A stretch of 64,000 bases of DNA, taken from NCBI RefSeq assembly GCF_044324875.1, contig NZ_CP172185.1, one strand, 5' to 3'. Positions 10,187 to 35,790 of the stretch are shown here, in pieces (the first letter of the stretch is position 1; every line of letters begins with the position of its first letter). A model generated the notes under the pieces. It was given only the letters and a program-made list of their open reading frames with translations. It had not been told where the DNA came from and made no database searches. This DNA is from Escherichia coli. GTDB lineage: Bacteria > Pseudomonadota > Gammaproteobacteria > Enterobacterales > Enterobacteriaceae. Position numbers and translations under genes: made by a program.

Positions 10187-12223
10187 TTAGTTTCTTACCA
10201 CCAAATCTAAATCAATAGATTTTTTATTAGCATAACTTTTTAGTGCTTCATTGAGTTCCATCTGTTTCGCACTTTCGAAGTTGCTGCCATAAAATACAAC
10301 TTTGTTAGGGGCAAAGTCTTTGTCTGCATCCAGCTTTTGAAGTAAAGCTTTCAAAGCCTCACTTGTGAAATTAGGCGCAATTAGATATAGCCGACCATCG
10401 CACAAGTGTGCTTTGTAGCCATTAAGGTCAATATCTTCAATTGGTGTTGTTAGCAAGCTGCCATCATACACGCACCATGTCGTCAATAGAGTGTCATACT
10501 GCTCTGGTGTCAATACAGCATCGTCAAAGAAACTAAGATTAGAAAGCGTAAGTTCAGACTCATCTTTCACTCGAAAATTATGAACTGTTTCAAATATTTT
10601 AAATCCCAAATCTCCATTATAATTAGGATTATCTTTTTTCAGCTTTTTTCCTGCCTTAATAATTCTGTCTTTTGTTATATTGAAGATGGATTTATACCCT
10701 TCTTTATAGGCTTGTTTCTTTTTATCTGTTTCTTCATCTAATTGAACACAGATGAAGTTTCTTTTCCTGCCGTCTTCAATATTTAACTCCAGAATACCAT
10801 GAGCTGTAGTTCCAGAGCCAGCAAAAAAGTCAAGATAAATGTCTTTATCTTCGGTTTTTACTGAACCAAATAGTGTTTTTATTAAACTTGTTGGCTTCGG
10901 GTAGGAGAAATATCCTTTCCCACCAAAAAGATTTTCAACCTCAACACCACCATCACTTTTAGTTGAAATAATTGATCTTAGTAAAAACTCTTCAACTTCA
11001 TCTAAAAATTTAACCGAACTGGGTTGGGTGTTTTCTGTACTGGCAAACCAAATTCCACCACAAATAACGCTACCATCATGTAGTTTTTTGATATCTGCAT
11101 ACTTTCCATCTATTCTTTTTGCAATATGATTAAAAGTGCCTTCTTTCCAACGCCAGCCTCTGTCTGGGATTTTGACAGGGTTATTAGTCAAAGGGTGCAA
11201 TACTTCATACGTGGGTCCAAATGAATCTGCATTAGGCCAGCTCATATTAATTTTACCCCATGGCCTATAATCTTCGTTCAAACAGTTGTAAAGAGTAATT
11301 CCACGATCATATCCGTTGGAGCTGTAGAATTTTTTGAGTTGCTGCTCTGCTTTATCTAATGGCACCTTCTCCTTTTTTAACTTTTCAATAAACTGATATA
11401 CATCATCAATACCATCTTTCCGCATTAAAAATTCTTTACTTATTTCGTTATTCTTCGCATAAGCAAGGATGTACTCATGGATATTACCAATACCCTTATC
11501 ATTTTTAGGGATACGTTTATTCCATACAATATTTTCTATGAAATTTGCTTCGCCAAAAATTTCATCACAAATAGTTTTAAGTTGATTTAATTCATTTTCG
11601 TCAATCGAAATAAATATCACACCATCTTCACGTAGAAGCTCACGAGCAATATATAAACGAGGATAAATGAACGTTAACCATGCGCTATGGCTGCTTGAAC
11701 CATTCGTGGTAAATTCAAGTATACGTTTAGCCTCATCAAGATCGATACCTGCCAGATCAGAAAGCTGTTCAGGTGTAAACTTGCGATCATCGTTATAGGC
11801 GAATCCATCCTTACCTGTATTGTATGGTGGATCAATGTAAATCATCTTCACCTTTTCAGAGTAAGCATTAACCATATGCTTCAATACTTCGAGGTTATCC
11901 CCTTTGATTAACAGATTCTGACTGTTTTTGTTCTCTTCACGTTGGTTATGGTCTTTATCTTCGGAGAGTAATGTCTTCGGCGGCAAGTTAGCTAACAGAC
12001 GGGCATAGGATTTACCAAGCCAGTTCAGGCTGTATGATTCTTTGGAGAGTTCAACATCCGATGATTTGACGATTTCAAGCAATTTTTCCTGAATGAACGC
12101 TCCATTTTTATCAAAACACTGTGGAAAGTTAGCCTTTAAAATCGCAAGCTGTTTACTGTTTGTGGTTTCAGTTTCAGAGAAAAGAGTTTCTTTTTTCAGT
12201 TGAAATTGGGGTTGTGTATTCAT
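10187..12223 (-). CDS. mod: Type III DNA methyltransferase Mod (N6-adenine)
   Basis: 678 aa; motif IV IYIDPPYNTG before motif I LDFFAGSGTT (beta-class order typical of Type III Mod); strong GGAGG RBS; ATG 12223 overlaps the stop of the upstream leader ORF. Confidence 0.9.
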   Translation of the reverse strand: MNTQPQFQLKKETLFSETETTNSKQLAILKANFPQCFDKNGAFIQEKLLEIVKSSDVELSKESYSLNWLGKSYARLLANLPPKTLLSEDKDHNQREENKNSQNLLIKGDNLEVLKHMVNAYSEKVKMIYIDPPYNTGKDGFAYNDDRKFTPEQLSDLAGIDLDEAKRILEFTTNGSSSHSAWLTFIYPRLYIARELLREDGVIFISIDENELNQLKTICDEIFGEANFIENIVWNKRIPKNDKGIGNIHEYILAYAKNNEISKEFLMRKDGIDDVYQFIEKLKKEKVPLDKAEQQLKKFYSSNGYDRGITLYNCLNEDYRPWGKINMSWPNADSFGPTYEVLHPLTNNPVKIPDRGWRWKEGTFNHIAKRIDGKYADIKKLHDGSVICGGIWFASTENTQPSSVKFLDEVEEFLLRSIISTKSDGGVEVENLFGGKGYFSYPKPTSLIKTLFGSVKTEDKDIYLDFFAGSGTTAHGILELNIEDGRKRNFICVQLDEETDKKKQAYKEGYKSIFNITKDRIIKAGKKLKKDNPNYNGDLGFKIFETVHNFRVKDESELTLSNLSFFDDAVLTPEQYDTLLTTWCVYDGSLLTTPIEDIDLNGYKAHLCDGRLYLIAPNFTSEALKALLQKLDADKDFAPNKVVFYGSNFESAKQMELNEALKSYANKKSIDLDLVVRN

Positions 12224-12432
12224 AACGCACCTCCAGAATGCACGGAGGTACTTGACGCGGAATTTTTATACAGGCATATTGTTGCGTTGCGTTGCGTTGC
12301 GTTGCGTTGCGTTGCGTTGCGTTTCGTTGCGTTGCGTTGCGTTGCGTTGCGTTGCGTTGCGTTGCGTTGCGTTGCGTTGCGTTGCGTTGCGTTGCGTTGC
12401 GTTGCGTTGCGTTGCGTTGCGTTGCGTTTCAT
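12220..12432 (-). CDS. repeat-containing leader ORF, 70 codons, MK(RNATQ)n..., translationally coupled to mod
   Basis: ATG at 12432 with GAGG 7 nt upstream; the whole pentanucleotide tract is inside the ORF; TGA stop overlaps mod ATG (ATGA). Confidence 0.4.
   Translation of the reverse strand: MKRNATQRNATQRNATQRNATQRNATQRNATQRNATKRNATQRNATQRNATICLYKNSASSTSVHSGGAL
12281..12430. repeat. pentanucleotide tandem repeat (GTTGC)n, 30 units, 28 perfect
   Basis: Read directly: 8 perfect units, GTTTC variant at 12321..12325, 20 perfect units 12326..12425, GTTTC variant 12426..12430. Confidence 0.95.
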
Positions 12433-12465
12433 TAAATAGCCTCGAGTTTCGTTTTACAGGTTTTT

Positions 12466-12494
12466 ATTCTAACCTGAATTGTTGATTTTCTGAA
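12466..12494 (-). promoter_or_regulatory. candidate sigma70 promoter for the leader-mod-res transcript (-35 TTCAGA, 17-nt spacer, -10 TAGAAT)
   Basis: Hexamers read on the minus strand upstream of the leader RBS; no experimental support. Confidence 0.25.
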
Positions 12495-12505
12495 TAAGTC
12501 TGACG

Positions 12506-12680
12506 TCAGTTGTTACGGGAAGGTATCAGAGTGGCTAGATGCACTGTGGCACGTCTCATGGCGGTTATGGGGCTTGCCGGCGTTCTCCGGGGGGTAAAGC
12601 TCCGTGCTACTGTCACCTGGAACGCCGTTGCCGCAGGCGACCGCGTAAACCGTCTGTACCGCCCGGGCCCAATATTAAGA
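12506..12680 (+). pseudogene. IS3-family transposase (OrfB-like) internal fragment, degenerate
   Basis: Translation LLREGIRVARCTVARLMAVMGLAGVLRG...AVAAGDRVNR resembles the middle of IS3-family OrfB; no start; homology ends abruptly. Confidence 0.5.
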
Positions 12681-12709
12681 ACTAACGTCATACCAGGGAC
12701 GTTGTCTGA

Positions 12710-13723
12710 ATGGATGAGAAGCTAAAACATGCGGATTTATCGTCTTTGCCAGAGCAGGTGAGGGTTGCCGCTAGGGAGCTTGTTGACCTGAAGTTTCGTA
12801 TCGATATGGCAGCAAGAGGCGGTACGTCAGGGATACCACTTGACCTGCATGGGAGGATGACAGGAGGAGAATGGGGGCCGCATTGCGGGCTGGAATTTTT
12901 CTGCAGCATCATTCCTTTTTTCCCGCGAGATTTTGAAACCTGTTCAGTAACTGAAATGTTGGTTCCTACCTTACATACCTTCGGCTGCAACTGGCGTTGG
13001 TGGCCCGATCGTTATTGTAGCGACAAAGATGAACACTATATACGGCGTCACATTTTTTCTGATTACGGGCTGAAAAGTACGAGCTATACCTTCATTCCTC
13101 AGTTGGGATTGTTCTGCCCGAGTGAAGGTAAAAATCGTGTTAACTTCTGCCGCCATCACGGTATCGAATATATCCCCGCACAGGTTTATTCCCATGATTA
13201 CCCAGAAGCAAATCGAATCTCTGTGTACGTTCAGGATACTGCCGGAGGGCTGGATGTGTGGGCCGTTCTTGATAATCGCTATGTTCAGAAGGTTACTCAC
13301 TATGCCTTTGCGCTCCCACTTTTGTGCGCTTATGGGGTAGAGTTCCCAGGTAAGTGGCCAGCAGGATGGCCATCGATATCGGACCTCCTGGCTAATCAAC
13401 TGTGTTGCACTGATGACACAACCTTTCATAAACCCGTGATCGATATGCAAGCTGTCAGGGATACGCTGGATCGTGATGAGAACAGCAGAGAGGATGGGGA
13501 GATGTATGTCAAAACCAATGTGGTTGAGCTGCCGCTGGCCGGGCTGGTTCGCTTCATTCTGATCGCAATGTTACTGAGTTTAGGTGCGTTGTTCATCCAC
13601 GAGGTACTGGATGAGGGAAGCCTGTCCAGGATTGCACTGGGAATAAGCACTTTCACGGCTGGCGTGGTTGCTTCGTTTTTTATCCCAGCGTTCCGTATCA
13701 AGAAAAAATATCTTCGCAAATAG
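12710..13723 (+). CDS. hypothetical protein with two C-terminal transmembrane helices (337 aa)
   Basis: ORF track; Cys/Trp-rich soluble part, then hydrophobic helices and a KKK tail; no recognised domain. Confidence 0.35.
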   Translation: MDEKLKHADLSSLPEQVRVAARELVDLKFRIDMAARGGTSGIPLDLHGRMTGGEWGPHCGLEFFCSIIPFFPRDFETCSVTEMLVPTLHTFGCNWRWWPDRYCSDKDEHYIRRHIFSDYGLKSTSYTFIPQLGLFCPSEGKNRVNFCRHHGIEYIPAQVYSHDYPEANRISVYVQDTAGGLDVWAVLDNRYVQKVTHYAFALPLLCAYGVEFPGKWPAGWPSISDLLANQLCCTDDTTFHKPVIDMQAVRDTLDRDENSREDGEMYVKTNVVELPLAGLVRFILIAMLLSLGALFIHEVLDEGSLSRIALGISTFTAGVVASFFIPAFRIKKKYLRK

Positions 13724-13725
13724 TT

Positions 13726-13993
13726 GTGGCATTTCTTGAACACTTTTTCGAGACAGGTTCAACCGCAGGCATTCAGGCCAAACATGCGGTTAAACTACGT
13801 ATTCAATTAACTGCCCTAAATATGGCTAAGCGCCCGGACGATATGTCTGTCTGCACCTAGGTGGAAATTACACCCTCTAAAGGGAGCTGATCTTAGAGGT
13901 CATTGGGAAATATCAGTAAACTCTAACTGGCGAATTACCTTTCGATTTGAAGGCGAAGACGCAATTCTGGTTGACTATCAGGATTATCATTGA
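13726..13993 (+). pseudogene. higB: HigB/RelE-family toxin remnant (frameshifted, no start)
   Basis: Two frames together give ...FFETGSTAGIQAKHAVKLRIQLTALN... / ...WKLHPLKGADLRGHWEISVNSNWRITFRFEGEDAILVDYQDYH*, the characteristic HigB C-terminus as I remember it. Confidence 0.5.
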
Positions 13994-13998
13994 GGGAT

Positions 13999-14001
13999 AA
14001 C
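13999..14001. repeat. 3-bp target-site duplication AAC (left)
   Basis: AAC flanks both ends of the IS629-like element (right copy 14747..14749). Confidence 0.45.
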
Positions 14002-14746
14002 TGAACCGCCCCGGGAATCCTGGAGACTAAACTCCCTGATAAAGAGGTAAACAGAATGACTAAAAATACTCGTTTTTCCCCCGAAGTCCGTCAGAGGGCG
14101 ATTCGTATGGTTCTGGAAAGTCAGGGCGAATATGACTCACAGTGGGCGGCAATTTGTTCCATTGCCCCAAAGATTGGCTGTACACCGGAGACTCTGCGTG
14201 TCTGGGTACGCCAGCATGAGCGGGATACCGGAGGCGGTGATGGCGGGCTCACCACCGCTGAACGTCAGCGTCTGAAAGAGCTGGAACGTGAAAATCGTGA
14301 ACTGCGCCGCATCGTCTATGGAAACGACATTCGTGCTGGATGCTCTGGAGCAGGCGTTATGGGCCCGTCGACCGTCCGGCACAGTCCATCACAGTGATAA
14401 AGGTTCTCAGTATGTATCGCTGGCCTACACACAGCGGCTTAAGGAAGCCGGATTACTGGCATCAACAGGAAGTACTGGTGACTCGTATGACAACGCGATG
14501 GCGGAGAGCATCAATGGCCTTTACAAAGCGGAGGTAATACACCGTAAGAGCTGGAAAAACCGGACAGAAGTGGAGCTGGCCACACTCACGTGGGTGGACT
14601 GGTATAACAATCGACGATTGCTGGAAAGGCTGGGCCATATCCCACCGGCAGAAGCAGAAAAAGCTTATTATGCTTCCATCGGAAACGATGATCTGGCAGC
14701 CTGAGTTCACAGATAAAACACTCTCCAGGAAACCCGGGGCGGTTCA
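14002..14746 (+). mobile_element. IS629-like (IS3 family) element with ~565-bp internal deletion
   Basis: Terminal inverted repeats TGAACCGCCCCGGG(A/T)TTCCTGGAGA at both ends; OrfA N-terminus [15 protein letters not shown]...RENRELRR is fused directly to OrfB C-terminal part ...[11 protein letters not shown]...DDLAA; 745 bp against ~1.3 kb expected (from memory). Confidence 0.7.
14056..14704 (+). pseudogene. truncated and fused IS3-family orfA/orfB
   Basis: ORF track 14056..14397 (OrfA 1-87 plus out-of-frame tail) and 14288..14704 (OrfB C-terminal ~130 aa). Confidence 0.6.
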
Positions 14747-14749
14747 AAC
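14747..14749. repeat. 3-bp target-site duplication AAC (right)
   Basis: See 13999..14001. Confidence 0.45.
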
Positions 14750-14767
14750 TATGAGTCGTATTCATAA

Positions 14768-14959
14768 TCCCGCCACTCAGGCGCGGTTCTTCGTGAAGAT
14801 CTGGGAGATATGTCAGTCACAGACGCTGCCACCGCATTGGGCATTACTCGCACGGCGCTTTCCCGGATTCTGAACGAAAAAGCGGGTATTTCTGCGGATA
14901 TGGCGCTCCGTCTGGAATCAGCACTCGGAACCAGCGCCGAAATGTGGACAGGTATGTAA
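14768..14959 (+). pseudogene. higA: HigA-like HTH antitoxin remnant (frameshifted, truncated)
   Basis: Translation HSGAVLREDLGDMSVTDAATALGITRTALSRILNEKAGISADMALRLESALGTSAEMW, an XRE-type HTH; normal start displaced by the IS insertion; C-terminal continuation is in another frame. Confidence 0.45.
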
Positions 14960-15163
14960 TCACAGTATGAGCTTTGGGTTGCTTCGCAAACTGCTCGCCC
15001 AAACATTCGCCCATTATTTCACCATGCCTGACATGCATTCCCCAACATTGGACGGGGAGCCGTCATGGAGGGGGCTACGCAGGAACCGCCGAAAGCACGC
15101 TGTTTTATATTTGTTTTATTGAATATAAGAGGAGGCCATAAAACGGCCCCCTTGTTTTTATCA

Positions 15164-15489
15164 GAAAGAGTAACGGAAGCTGGCGTTCACCGCGTTATCC
15201 ACGTTGTACTTACCAAATGCCGATTTCTCAAACTCCAGACCAAAGCGGAGATTATCGCGAATTTCTGCATTCAGACCAACATTCATGAGCATACGTCCGT
15301 CTTTCTCGCCTTTGATGCGTTTTTCACCAGAGGCATCGCGCGGAACGGTTTCACTGTTTGCCAGAATGTCAAACTGGTAACCGAGGCCGGCACGGGCAGT
15401 GACTTTCCAGTCCTTACCAGAGAAGGTTTTACCGACATCGATACCGGTACGGCCAATCAGCGGGTTGAAGTCCTTTCTGGTGTGAGAAC
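15164..15489 (-). pseudogene. autotransporter beta-domain C-terminal fragment (Ag43/AIDA-I-like), 5'-truncated
   Basis: Minus-strand translation ...GLGYQFDILANSETV...MLMNVGLNAEIRDNLRFGLEFEKSAFGKYNVDNAVNASFRYSF* with terminal aromatic; in-frame stop immediately upstream, no start. Confidence 0.45.
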
Positions 15490-15640
15490 CTTAAGGAAAT
15501 CGTCCGCAGCCCCATTACCGTCTTATATCACTGGCGCTGACATGTATTATCCGGGGAGTTAAGTCTGTCGATGTCCGACAGACTTTTGATAATGGAAACA
15601 ACATGCAGCGATAATGTGCATGCTGTTTTGCAGGTGGAAC

Positions 15641-35714: not shown

Positions 35715-35790
35715 TGGTGCCCGGAGGCGGAATCGAACCACCGACACGGGGATTTTCAATCCCCTGCTCTACCGACTGAGCTATCCGGGC
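35715..35790 (-). tRNA. pheV: tRNA-Phe (GAA), pheV-type, with variant T-stem
   Basis: 76-nt cloverleaf GCCCGGATAGCTCAGTCGGTAGAGCAGGGGATTGAAAATCCCCGTGTCGGTGGTTCGATTCCGCCTCCGGGCACCA; anticodon GAA; located beside yqgA. Confidence 0.9.

Follow-up and report, generated by a model that had tools for sequence, protein, structure and literature searches.

The HigBA module of plasmid Rts1 (Proteus vulgaris) is the closest described relative of the toxin-antitoxin genes considered here. Its HigB is a ribosome-dependent mRNA endonuclease and its HigA an HTH antitoxin (PDB 4MCT/4MCX, 4PX8). Intact relatives on Escherichia coli plasmids encode 93 amino acids for each protein, in two 282-nt ORFs with an upstream region of their own. 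The locus described below lies in a 64-kb stretch of E. coli DNA (the window, meaning the whole stretch that was analysed). As in Rts1 and other hig systems, the toxin gene comes first and the antitoxin gene second, and the toxin keeps the C-terminal DYH when its frame is repaired. The locus differs from Rts1 in that both genes are dead and an insertion sequence (IS) lies between them. With the IS removed, it is 88-94% identical in nucleotide sequence to three intact plasmid pairs over 13735..15031, and its spacer between toxin stop and antitoxin start has the same layout as theirs.

The inserted element can be compared with the IS629/IS1203/IS3411 group of the IS3 family, whose members are 1310 bp long. 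It shares with them the TG...CA ends, the 25-nt terminal repeats and a 3-bp duplication, but the window copy is a non-autonomous form of 745 bp. Subtypes of IS629 are 4-5% apart, and their target duplications measure 3-4 bp (PMC3271280).

A further parallel is provided by MITE-like elements, for example MITEAba12 (PMC6382973). Like these, the 745-bp element keeps both terminal repeats, has lost its functional transposase and is found with duplications of its own at unrelated loci. Unlike typical MITEs, it is much larger, still encodes a truncated OrfA and is present in only one or two copies per genome. It also differs from MITE bursts, since most of its occurrences reflect inheritance of one plasmid-borne copy. 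A search of the accessible literature for a deletion derivative or MITE of IS629/IS1203 returned nothing relevant.

A HigBA relic and the age of its lesions

The coordinates of the features are collected in Table 1. A first-pass annotation, made from the sequence alone, had described a degraded higBA-like locus, frameshifted or truncated in both genes, in which the toxin C-terminus and the antitoxin HTH could still be recognised. This description holds. Alignment of the reconstructed proteins with family profiles, which the same annotation had proposed, gave clear assignments for both. The frame-repaired toxin, whose C-terminus (...NWRITFRFEGEDAILVDYQDYH) terminates at TGA 13991-13993, matches PF05015 (HigB-like toxin; E 1.8e-15, model positions 7-91 of 91) and can be aligned over its full length with HigB of Proteus vulgaris (4MCT chain B; E 1.4e-23). 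The repaired antitoxin, a HigA-type HTH protein (Xre/Cro-like), scores 90.2 bits against TIGR02607, for which the curated cut-off is 47.7, and matches HTH_3 (E 1.1e-9) as well as solved HigA chains. When the IS is removed, 10 nt separate the higB stop from the higA ATG, compared with 9 nt in the intact plasmid alleles; the spacer has an extra T at 13998 relative to those pairs.

Table 1. Features of the locus in window coordinates, followed by intact plasmid relatives and by copies of the 745-bp element elsewhere
Feature	Position or accession	Strand	Basis or remark
Older IS629-group relic, ~162 nt of the orfB N-terminal part, no ends	12496..12657	+	PGAP 12504-12659
higB pseudogene, HigB-type RelE-superfamily toxin	13708..13993	+	stop TGA 13991-13993
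Tandem TGTC duplication (+4 nt), frameshifts higB	13844..13851	+	common to IS-free STEC allele L004
Target-site duplication AAC, left copy	13999..14001	.	
745-bp non-autonomous IS629-group (IS3-family) derivative	14002..14746	+	ends, duplication, alignment to L002
Truncated orfA, 113 codons: OrfA residues 1-85 plus 28 out-of-frame codons	14056..14397	+	NF033516 model positions 1-73
orfB remnant, C-terminal 130 codons, different frame from orfA	14312..14704	+	NF033516 positions 254-369 of 369, 136 bits
Target-site duplication AAC, right copy	14747..14749	.	
higA pseudogene	14751..15031	+	original stop 15029-15031
Intact plasmid higBA example, WP_059331045.1/WP_059331041.1	NZ_OZ546942.1		
Intact plasmid higBA example, WP_024166187.1/WP_001081196.1	pCFSAN004181P		
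Copy of the 745-bp element between nikB remnant and ISEc43 remnant	ColV/IncF plasmids		flanks TAC / TAT (imperfect)
Copy of the 745-bp element between nanE-like and lysozyme-inhibitor genes	IMT5155 and DE17 chromosomes		flanks CTC / CTC
Copy of the 745-bp element inside malS	strain 1517k chromosome		flanks TAC / TAC
Copy of the 745-bp element on 5.7-kb Mob plasmid	pEC332_05		flanks GTT / GTA (imperfect)

Both genes carry several lesions. When aligned with the three intact plasmid alleles, higB is homologous only from about 13735 onwards. In place of the promoter and the first ~9 codons, the island copy has the 3' end of an unrelated 337-aa ORF (12710..13723), for which searches of NCBIfam and PADLOC gave no match, and all sequence upstream of ~13735 is unrelated to plasmid higBA. 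Further downstream, the TGTC duplication shifts the toxin into a frame that stops at TAG 13858-13860. In higA, loss of one nucleotide (G) after 14773 causes a -1 frameshift at codon 9, and CAA>TAA at 14957-14959 creates a stop at Q70. The missing G sits in a short run, after CCCGC. The locus had at first been taken to end at 14960, but this position marks just the premature TAA; higA continues to its original stop.

A working HigBA module has two intact, expressible frames. Neither is present here, since higB is 5'-truncated, promoterless and shifted by +4, and higA has the -1 deletion and the Q70 stop. Judged from its sequence, the locus is thus the relic of a genuine HigBA type II module and not a working member, and it is presumably not expressed. 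A candidate for residual activity is a 49-codon ORF (14810..14959) that covers the HigA HTH and may still have a function.

The whole 1451-bp segment occurs at 99.7-100% identity in six complete E. coli chromosomes, five of which come from chicken or chicken meat. In all six near-identical loci, RefSeq/PGAP annotates these same pseudogenes, with higB labelled 'RelE/ParE family toxin, frameshifted' and higA 'HigA family addiction module antitoxin, frameshifted; internal stop', in agreement with the lesions placed against the intact alleles. Two STEC chromosomes, 2015C-3121 (L004 in Table 1) and STEC2018-553 (CP075665), have an empty site, where an uninterrupted 703-bp piece matches at 99.1% identity. 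The lesions were read by alignment in L004, and CP075665 was compared through the 99.1% identity match. The IS-free allele L004 already has the 5' break, the TGTC duplication, the -1 deletion in higA and the TAA, which makes these lesions older than the IS insertion. The lineage of the window has later acquired G>A at 13859 and GG>TC at 13922-13923, both missense changes at conserved positions of higB (G>R and GNW>SNW, respectively), as well as T>G at 14798.

It could be argued that errors of sequencing or assembly produced the frameshifts and the stop and that higBA is intact apart from the IS, given the general error rate of long reads and the position of one lesion, the -1 G after CCCGC, in a short run. 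However, the same four lesions recur across eight independent complete genomes from varied laboratories, hosts and countries (CP075665 through its 99.1% match). Moreover, typical homopolymer errors would not take the form of a 4-nt duplication, a substitution that creates TAA or a rearrangement at the 5' end. Sequencing error, which the first-pass annotation had named as a reason to doubt the frameshifts, is scarcely credible as their source. The comparison instead indicates that the higBA lesions are real, that they predate the IS and that the IS did not inactivate the module. This order also fits the expected effect of the insertion, because, with an active toxin, an element that cut higA off from the operon promoter would do harm.

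The locus lies ~21 kb inside an island integrated at tRNA-Phe (window 35715-35790). Its neighbourhood is a mosaic of a type III restriction-modification pair, the older IS relic, the 337-aa ORF and the higBA relic, accompanied by a truncated gene for an autotransporter beta-barrel, traF, an integrase and a shufflon-containing type IVb pilus cluster. The suggestion that this part of the island records repeated insertion and decay is a fair description.

The inserted IS629-type element

The element was inserted in the 10-nt spacer between higB and higA. Its inverted repeats, IRL (14002-14026) and IRR (14722-14746), are 25 nt long and match at 23 of 25 positions (92%). The termini are of the TG...CA type, with TGAACCGCCCCGGG... 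beginning at 14002 and ...CCCGGGGCGGTTCA ending at 14746. A search for the repeat that allowed three mismatches found just these two sites in the 64-kb window, while 100 shuffles gave an expectation of 0. The AAC duplication borders the element on both sides. An IS629-like member of the IS3 family, with intact repeats and an AAC duplication, placed exactly between the two genes, was what the first-pass annotation had reported, and all of this is seen in the sequence.

Alignment with L002, a full-length 1310-bp element on plasmid NZ_CP029742, gave 100% identity over all 745 retained bases, interrupted by one 565-bp gap. The ends therefore belong to an element of the IS629 group, and the concern that they might match no member of the IS3 family has been dispelled. 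The deletion junction is at 14309|14310, has a 2-bp CA microhomology and provides a sequence diagnostic of the 745-bp element, GAACTGCGCCG|CATCGTCTATGG. The missing part, nt 309-873, comprises 23 codons at the end of orfA, both the frameshift window and the pseudoknot, and the N-terminal ~60% of orfB with the first catalytic Asp. Of the DDE triad, the orfB remnant retains the second Asp and the Glu. A fusion of OrfA, from about residue 87, to the OrfB C-terminus had been proposed; instead, OrfA keeps its residues 1-85 and then continues out of frame across the junction to a stop at 14397, so that no fusion is formed.

The full-length parent is annotated by PGAP with a 'programmed frameshift' and an AL1L pseudoknot. 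An Rfam scan of 11500-16000 at E<=0.1 found no match, which is consistent with the loss of the frameshift pseudoknot. With the frameshift window and the first Asp gone, the 745-bp element is unable to encode the OrfAB transposase and is hence non-autonomous. In the near-identical loci, PGAP labels it 'integrase core domain-containing protein, frameshifted'.

Stx-phage elements deposited as IS629 share 95.4-95.8% identity with the parent. Given that subtypes are themselves 4-5% apart, 'IS629-like' is a correct name; PGAP names close relatives as 'IS629 family' or 'IS1203 family'. An internally deleted IS629 is known from O55:H7 CB9615, but its published deletion is 86 bp and it is hence a different element.

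A second, diverged IS3-family fragment had also been noted nearby, at 12506..12680. The fragment is present, but its boundaries are those given in Table 1. The PGAP label is 'IS3 family transposase, missing N- and C-terminus'. Its identity is 85% to the parent of the 745-bp element and up to 91.4% to other copies of the IS629 group. By coincidence, it corresponds to part of the segment that the 745-bp element has lost; the 85% identity shows that it is not the excised 565-bp piece. All eight genomes with this island segment have the relic, even the two that lack the 745-bp element, and it therefore represents an independent and older event. Two separate events of the IS629 group have thus occurred within 2 kb.

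The same deleted element at other loci

Copies with the same deletion were sought with a 50-nt probe centred on the junction, neither half of which seeds alone under megablast. In E. coli, the probe retrieved 113 records, of which 102 are plasmids, from 107 genomes; in PLSDB, it retrieved 68 plasmids, all predicted to be conjugative and four of them from Klebsiella. Plasmids of the ColV type make up approximately 100 of the 113 records. Five loci were inspected among the 113 junction-bearing records, and the same deleted element is found in other contexts, in two of them with a perfect flanking duplication of its own (Table 1).

For the copy in malS, joining the flanks with a single TAC restores an intact malS, which is found at 100% identity and in one piece in many genomes. 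The reconstructed empty site indicates that the 745-bp element was inserted there as such. The copy on pEC332_05 spans the position at which the circular record had been opened, and its left repeat has one mismatch there. Its flanks are not a perfect duplication (GTT versus GTA), and it was dropped as evidence of transposition.

The copies on the ColV plasmid, in IMT5155 and in malS share seven substitutions relative to the window copy and form a second subtype (subtype B). Three of these substitutions, located to the left of the junction, are present in no full-length copy among 5,426 genomes, in which the best full-length match was 98.6%. Their absence from full-length copies implies that this lineage has spread as a deleted unit.

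Full-length occupants of the same sites were also sought. At the higBA site, none was found in the eight genomes with the locus, six of which have the deleted form and two the empty site. At the ColV site, the query was a chimera that joined 300 nt from the deleted interior to the right arm and to 400 nt of flanking sequence. No full-length element contiguous with the ColV flank was found with it: 45 records reached >=80% coverage, all as two-piece matches with inconsistent spans, and were rejected as chance adjacency of IS3 and IS66 elements.

Further IS629-type matches are present in all six host chromosomes, at two to six places per record. One host strain has a full-length copy on both its chromosome and a plasmid (H117, H118). 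In strain TUM1886, the chromosomal and the plasmid copy of the deleted element occur together.

Origin of the deletion and fate of the module

The first-pass annotation had stated that the IS has itself lost about 565 bp. The loss is borne out by the gap against L002; the implied decay at this site is unlikely, because the junction is also found at at least four other loci. These loci are unrelated, and two of them have perfect duplications, so the deletion is most likely older than the insertion in the higBA spacer, and the element had most likely been deleted before it arrived. The most economical account would be one deletion event, followed by mobilisation in trans by full-length copies of the IS629 group. 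A point against it is that both plasmid contexts inspected, ColV and pEC332_05, are without perfect duplications.

Alternatively, a full-length 1310-bp element could have inserted between higB and higA and lost 565 bp there, with the deleted form spreading from this place. One locus must after all be the birthplace of the deletion, and the window copy has features expected of an early one: its retained bases match a full-length element at 100%, and it belongs to an ancestral-looking subtype without derived substitutions. Nevertheless, none of the eight genomes with the locus has a full-length occupant, and with the junction at at least four other loci and about 100 of 113 records being of the ColV type, the higBA site is one candidate origin among at least five, in addition to unsampled ones. 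An origin in situ is accordingly unlikely. Another possibility is that the identical deletion arose separately at each locus, either at a hotspot or through gene conversion by a deleted copy. IS629 copies are numerous and recombine, TUM1886 has both chromosomal and plasmid copies, and there is the CA microhomology at the junction. However, a microhomology of two bases is too short to bring about the same 565-bp deletion repeatedly, a full-length occupant was found at no locus, and three loci share all seven subtype-B substitutions, three of which are in no full-length copy. Separate origins are thus very improbable.

We consider it probable, with good confidence, that the locus is a dead HigBA relic in which an already-deleted, trans-mobilised derivative of IS629 later arrived. 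In this scenario, with the order of the individual point lesions as we infer it, the module would have lost its promoter and the first ~9 codons of higB at a rearrangement junction with the 337-aa ORF. It would also have gained the +4 TGTC duplication, the -1 deletion at codon 9 of higA and the Q70 stop, with the older IS629-group fragment already near. In one sublineage, mostly poultry-associated, the 745-bp derivative would then have transposed into the spacer and duplicated AAC. For this move, and for any later one, the element would have depended entirely on full-length copies within the same cell that provide transposase in trans. Because the toxin was already dead, the insertion would have been tolerated, and it has no evident functional consequence.

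More tentatively, and with not quite even chances, the deleted form may constitute a distinct and still mobile 'mini-IS629' lineage, derived from a single 565-bp deletion, that has persisted, split into at least two subtypes and transposed to at least five loci. It would depend on the transposase of full-length IS629-group copies, and would express a truncated OrfA that could possibly modulate the transposition of IS629. The truncated OrfA in question consists of an HTH without a complete leucine zipper. Among the loci concerned would be malS, a core gene, as well as ColV virulence plasmids, a small Mob plasmid and plasmids that are now found in Klebsiella.

The components of the locus are all of known kinds, and RefSeq already lists the near-identical loci (99.7-100%) as pseudogenes. 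The sole mildly new point, as far as sequence comparison goes, is that the 745-bp element appears to be a recurring and, by prediction, mobilisable defective derivative of IS629 with a diagnostic junction, rather than a one-off local deletion; phenomena of this type are well known. Its annotation is inconsistent, with the names 'transposase', 'integrase core domain-containing protein' and 'DDE-type integrase' all in use. The presence or absence of the element at each site could serve as a lineage marker for avian-pathogenic E. coli and ColV plasmids. For the biology of the organism, the locus matters little, but it illustrates how a toxin-antitoxin module decays in a genomic island: once the promoter and the toxin have been lost, an IS may land safely between toxin and antitoxin.

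Copies of the 745-bp element beyond the island

The 745-bp element, an internally deleted, non-autonomous derivative of the IS629 group, is also found on plasmids and within a core chromosomal gene. Subtype B, whose copies share seven substitutions as against the window type (subtype A), occupies a single fixed site in about 100 ColV/IncF-type plasmids (PLSDB matches together with pMTY1886_IncF and locus L012), flanked by a nikB remnant on one side and an ISEc43 remnant on the other. These plasmids include NC_007675 and four from Klebsiella pneumoniae. Strain TUM1886 carries both subtypes, A on its chromosome and B on its plasmid. In E. coli 1517k, the element splits malS, which encodes the periplasmic alpha-amylase, with a TAC duplication; this disruption appears to be a strain-specific knockout.

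The identical element is labelled inconsistently across RefSeq genomes, as a comparison of PGAP annotations at five loci (L001, L003, L008, L009 and L016) made clear. It is given either as a single frameshifted 'integrase core domain-containing protein', or as a 'transposase' CDS (WP_001442106.1 or WP_024130047.1) accompanied by a partial 'DDE-type integrase/transposase/recombinase' pseudogene.

Features of the window and of two comparison loci
Feature	Position	Strand	Remarks
Type III mod ORF	window 10187..12223	minus	
70-codon ORF	window 12432..12220	minus	begins MKRNATQRNATQ...; spans repeat tract
Intact 337-aa ORF	window 12710-13723	plus	WP_000343645.1 / WP_000343644.1
Autotransporter beta-barrel gene fragment	window ~15161-15475	minus	PGAP: pseudogene without N-terminus
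tRNA-Phe	window 35715-35790	minus	marks island boundary
745-bp element, subtype B	L008 2218-2962		pMTY1886_IncF
745-bp element in malS	L010 2218-2962		E. coli 1517k chromosome

Neighbours of the higBA relic and cargo of the island

The start of higB has been replaced and overlapped by the 3' end of the 337-aa ORF, which is kept in every inspected genome with the island. Its product has a C-terminal hydrophobic stretch, and searches of NCBIfam and PADLOC returned no match. The higA relic is directly adjoined by a further decayed gene, the autotransporter beta-barrel fragment, with final residues ...NASFRYSF.

By its gene content in the matching genome, the island, which takes up the window as far as tRNA-Phe, resembles an integrative conjugative element: it encodes an integrase, TraI, TraF and a UvrD-like helicase, along with a type IVb pilus cluster that contains a PilV shufflon. 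An STEC relative has its traF interrupted by IS1.

A repeat tract upstream of the type III methyltransferase gene

Immediately upstream of the type III methyltransferase gene (mod) lies a pentanucleotide repeat, GTTGC (AACGC-type on the minus strand), present in 29.6 copies at 12281-12428. The stop of the 70-codon ORF and the mod start codon overlap (ATGA). Between the start of mod and the IS relic, an older IS629-group orfB fragment, there are 281 nt in the window, as against 371, 261 and 231 nt in three further genomes, so the pentanucleotide copy number is hypervariable. The type III mod looks like a candidate phase-variable gene.
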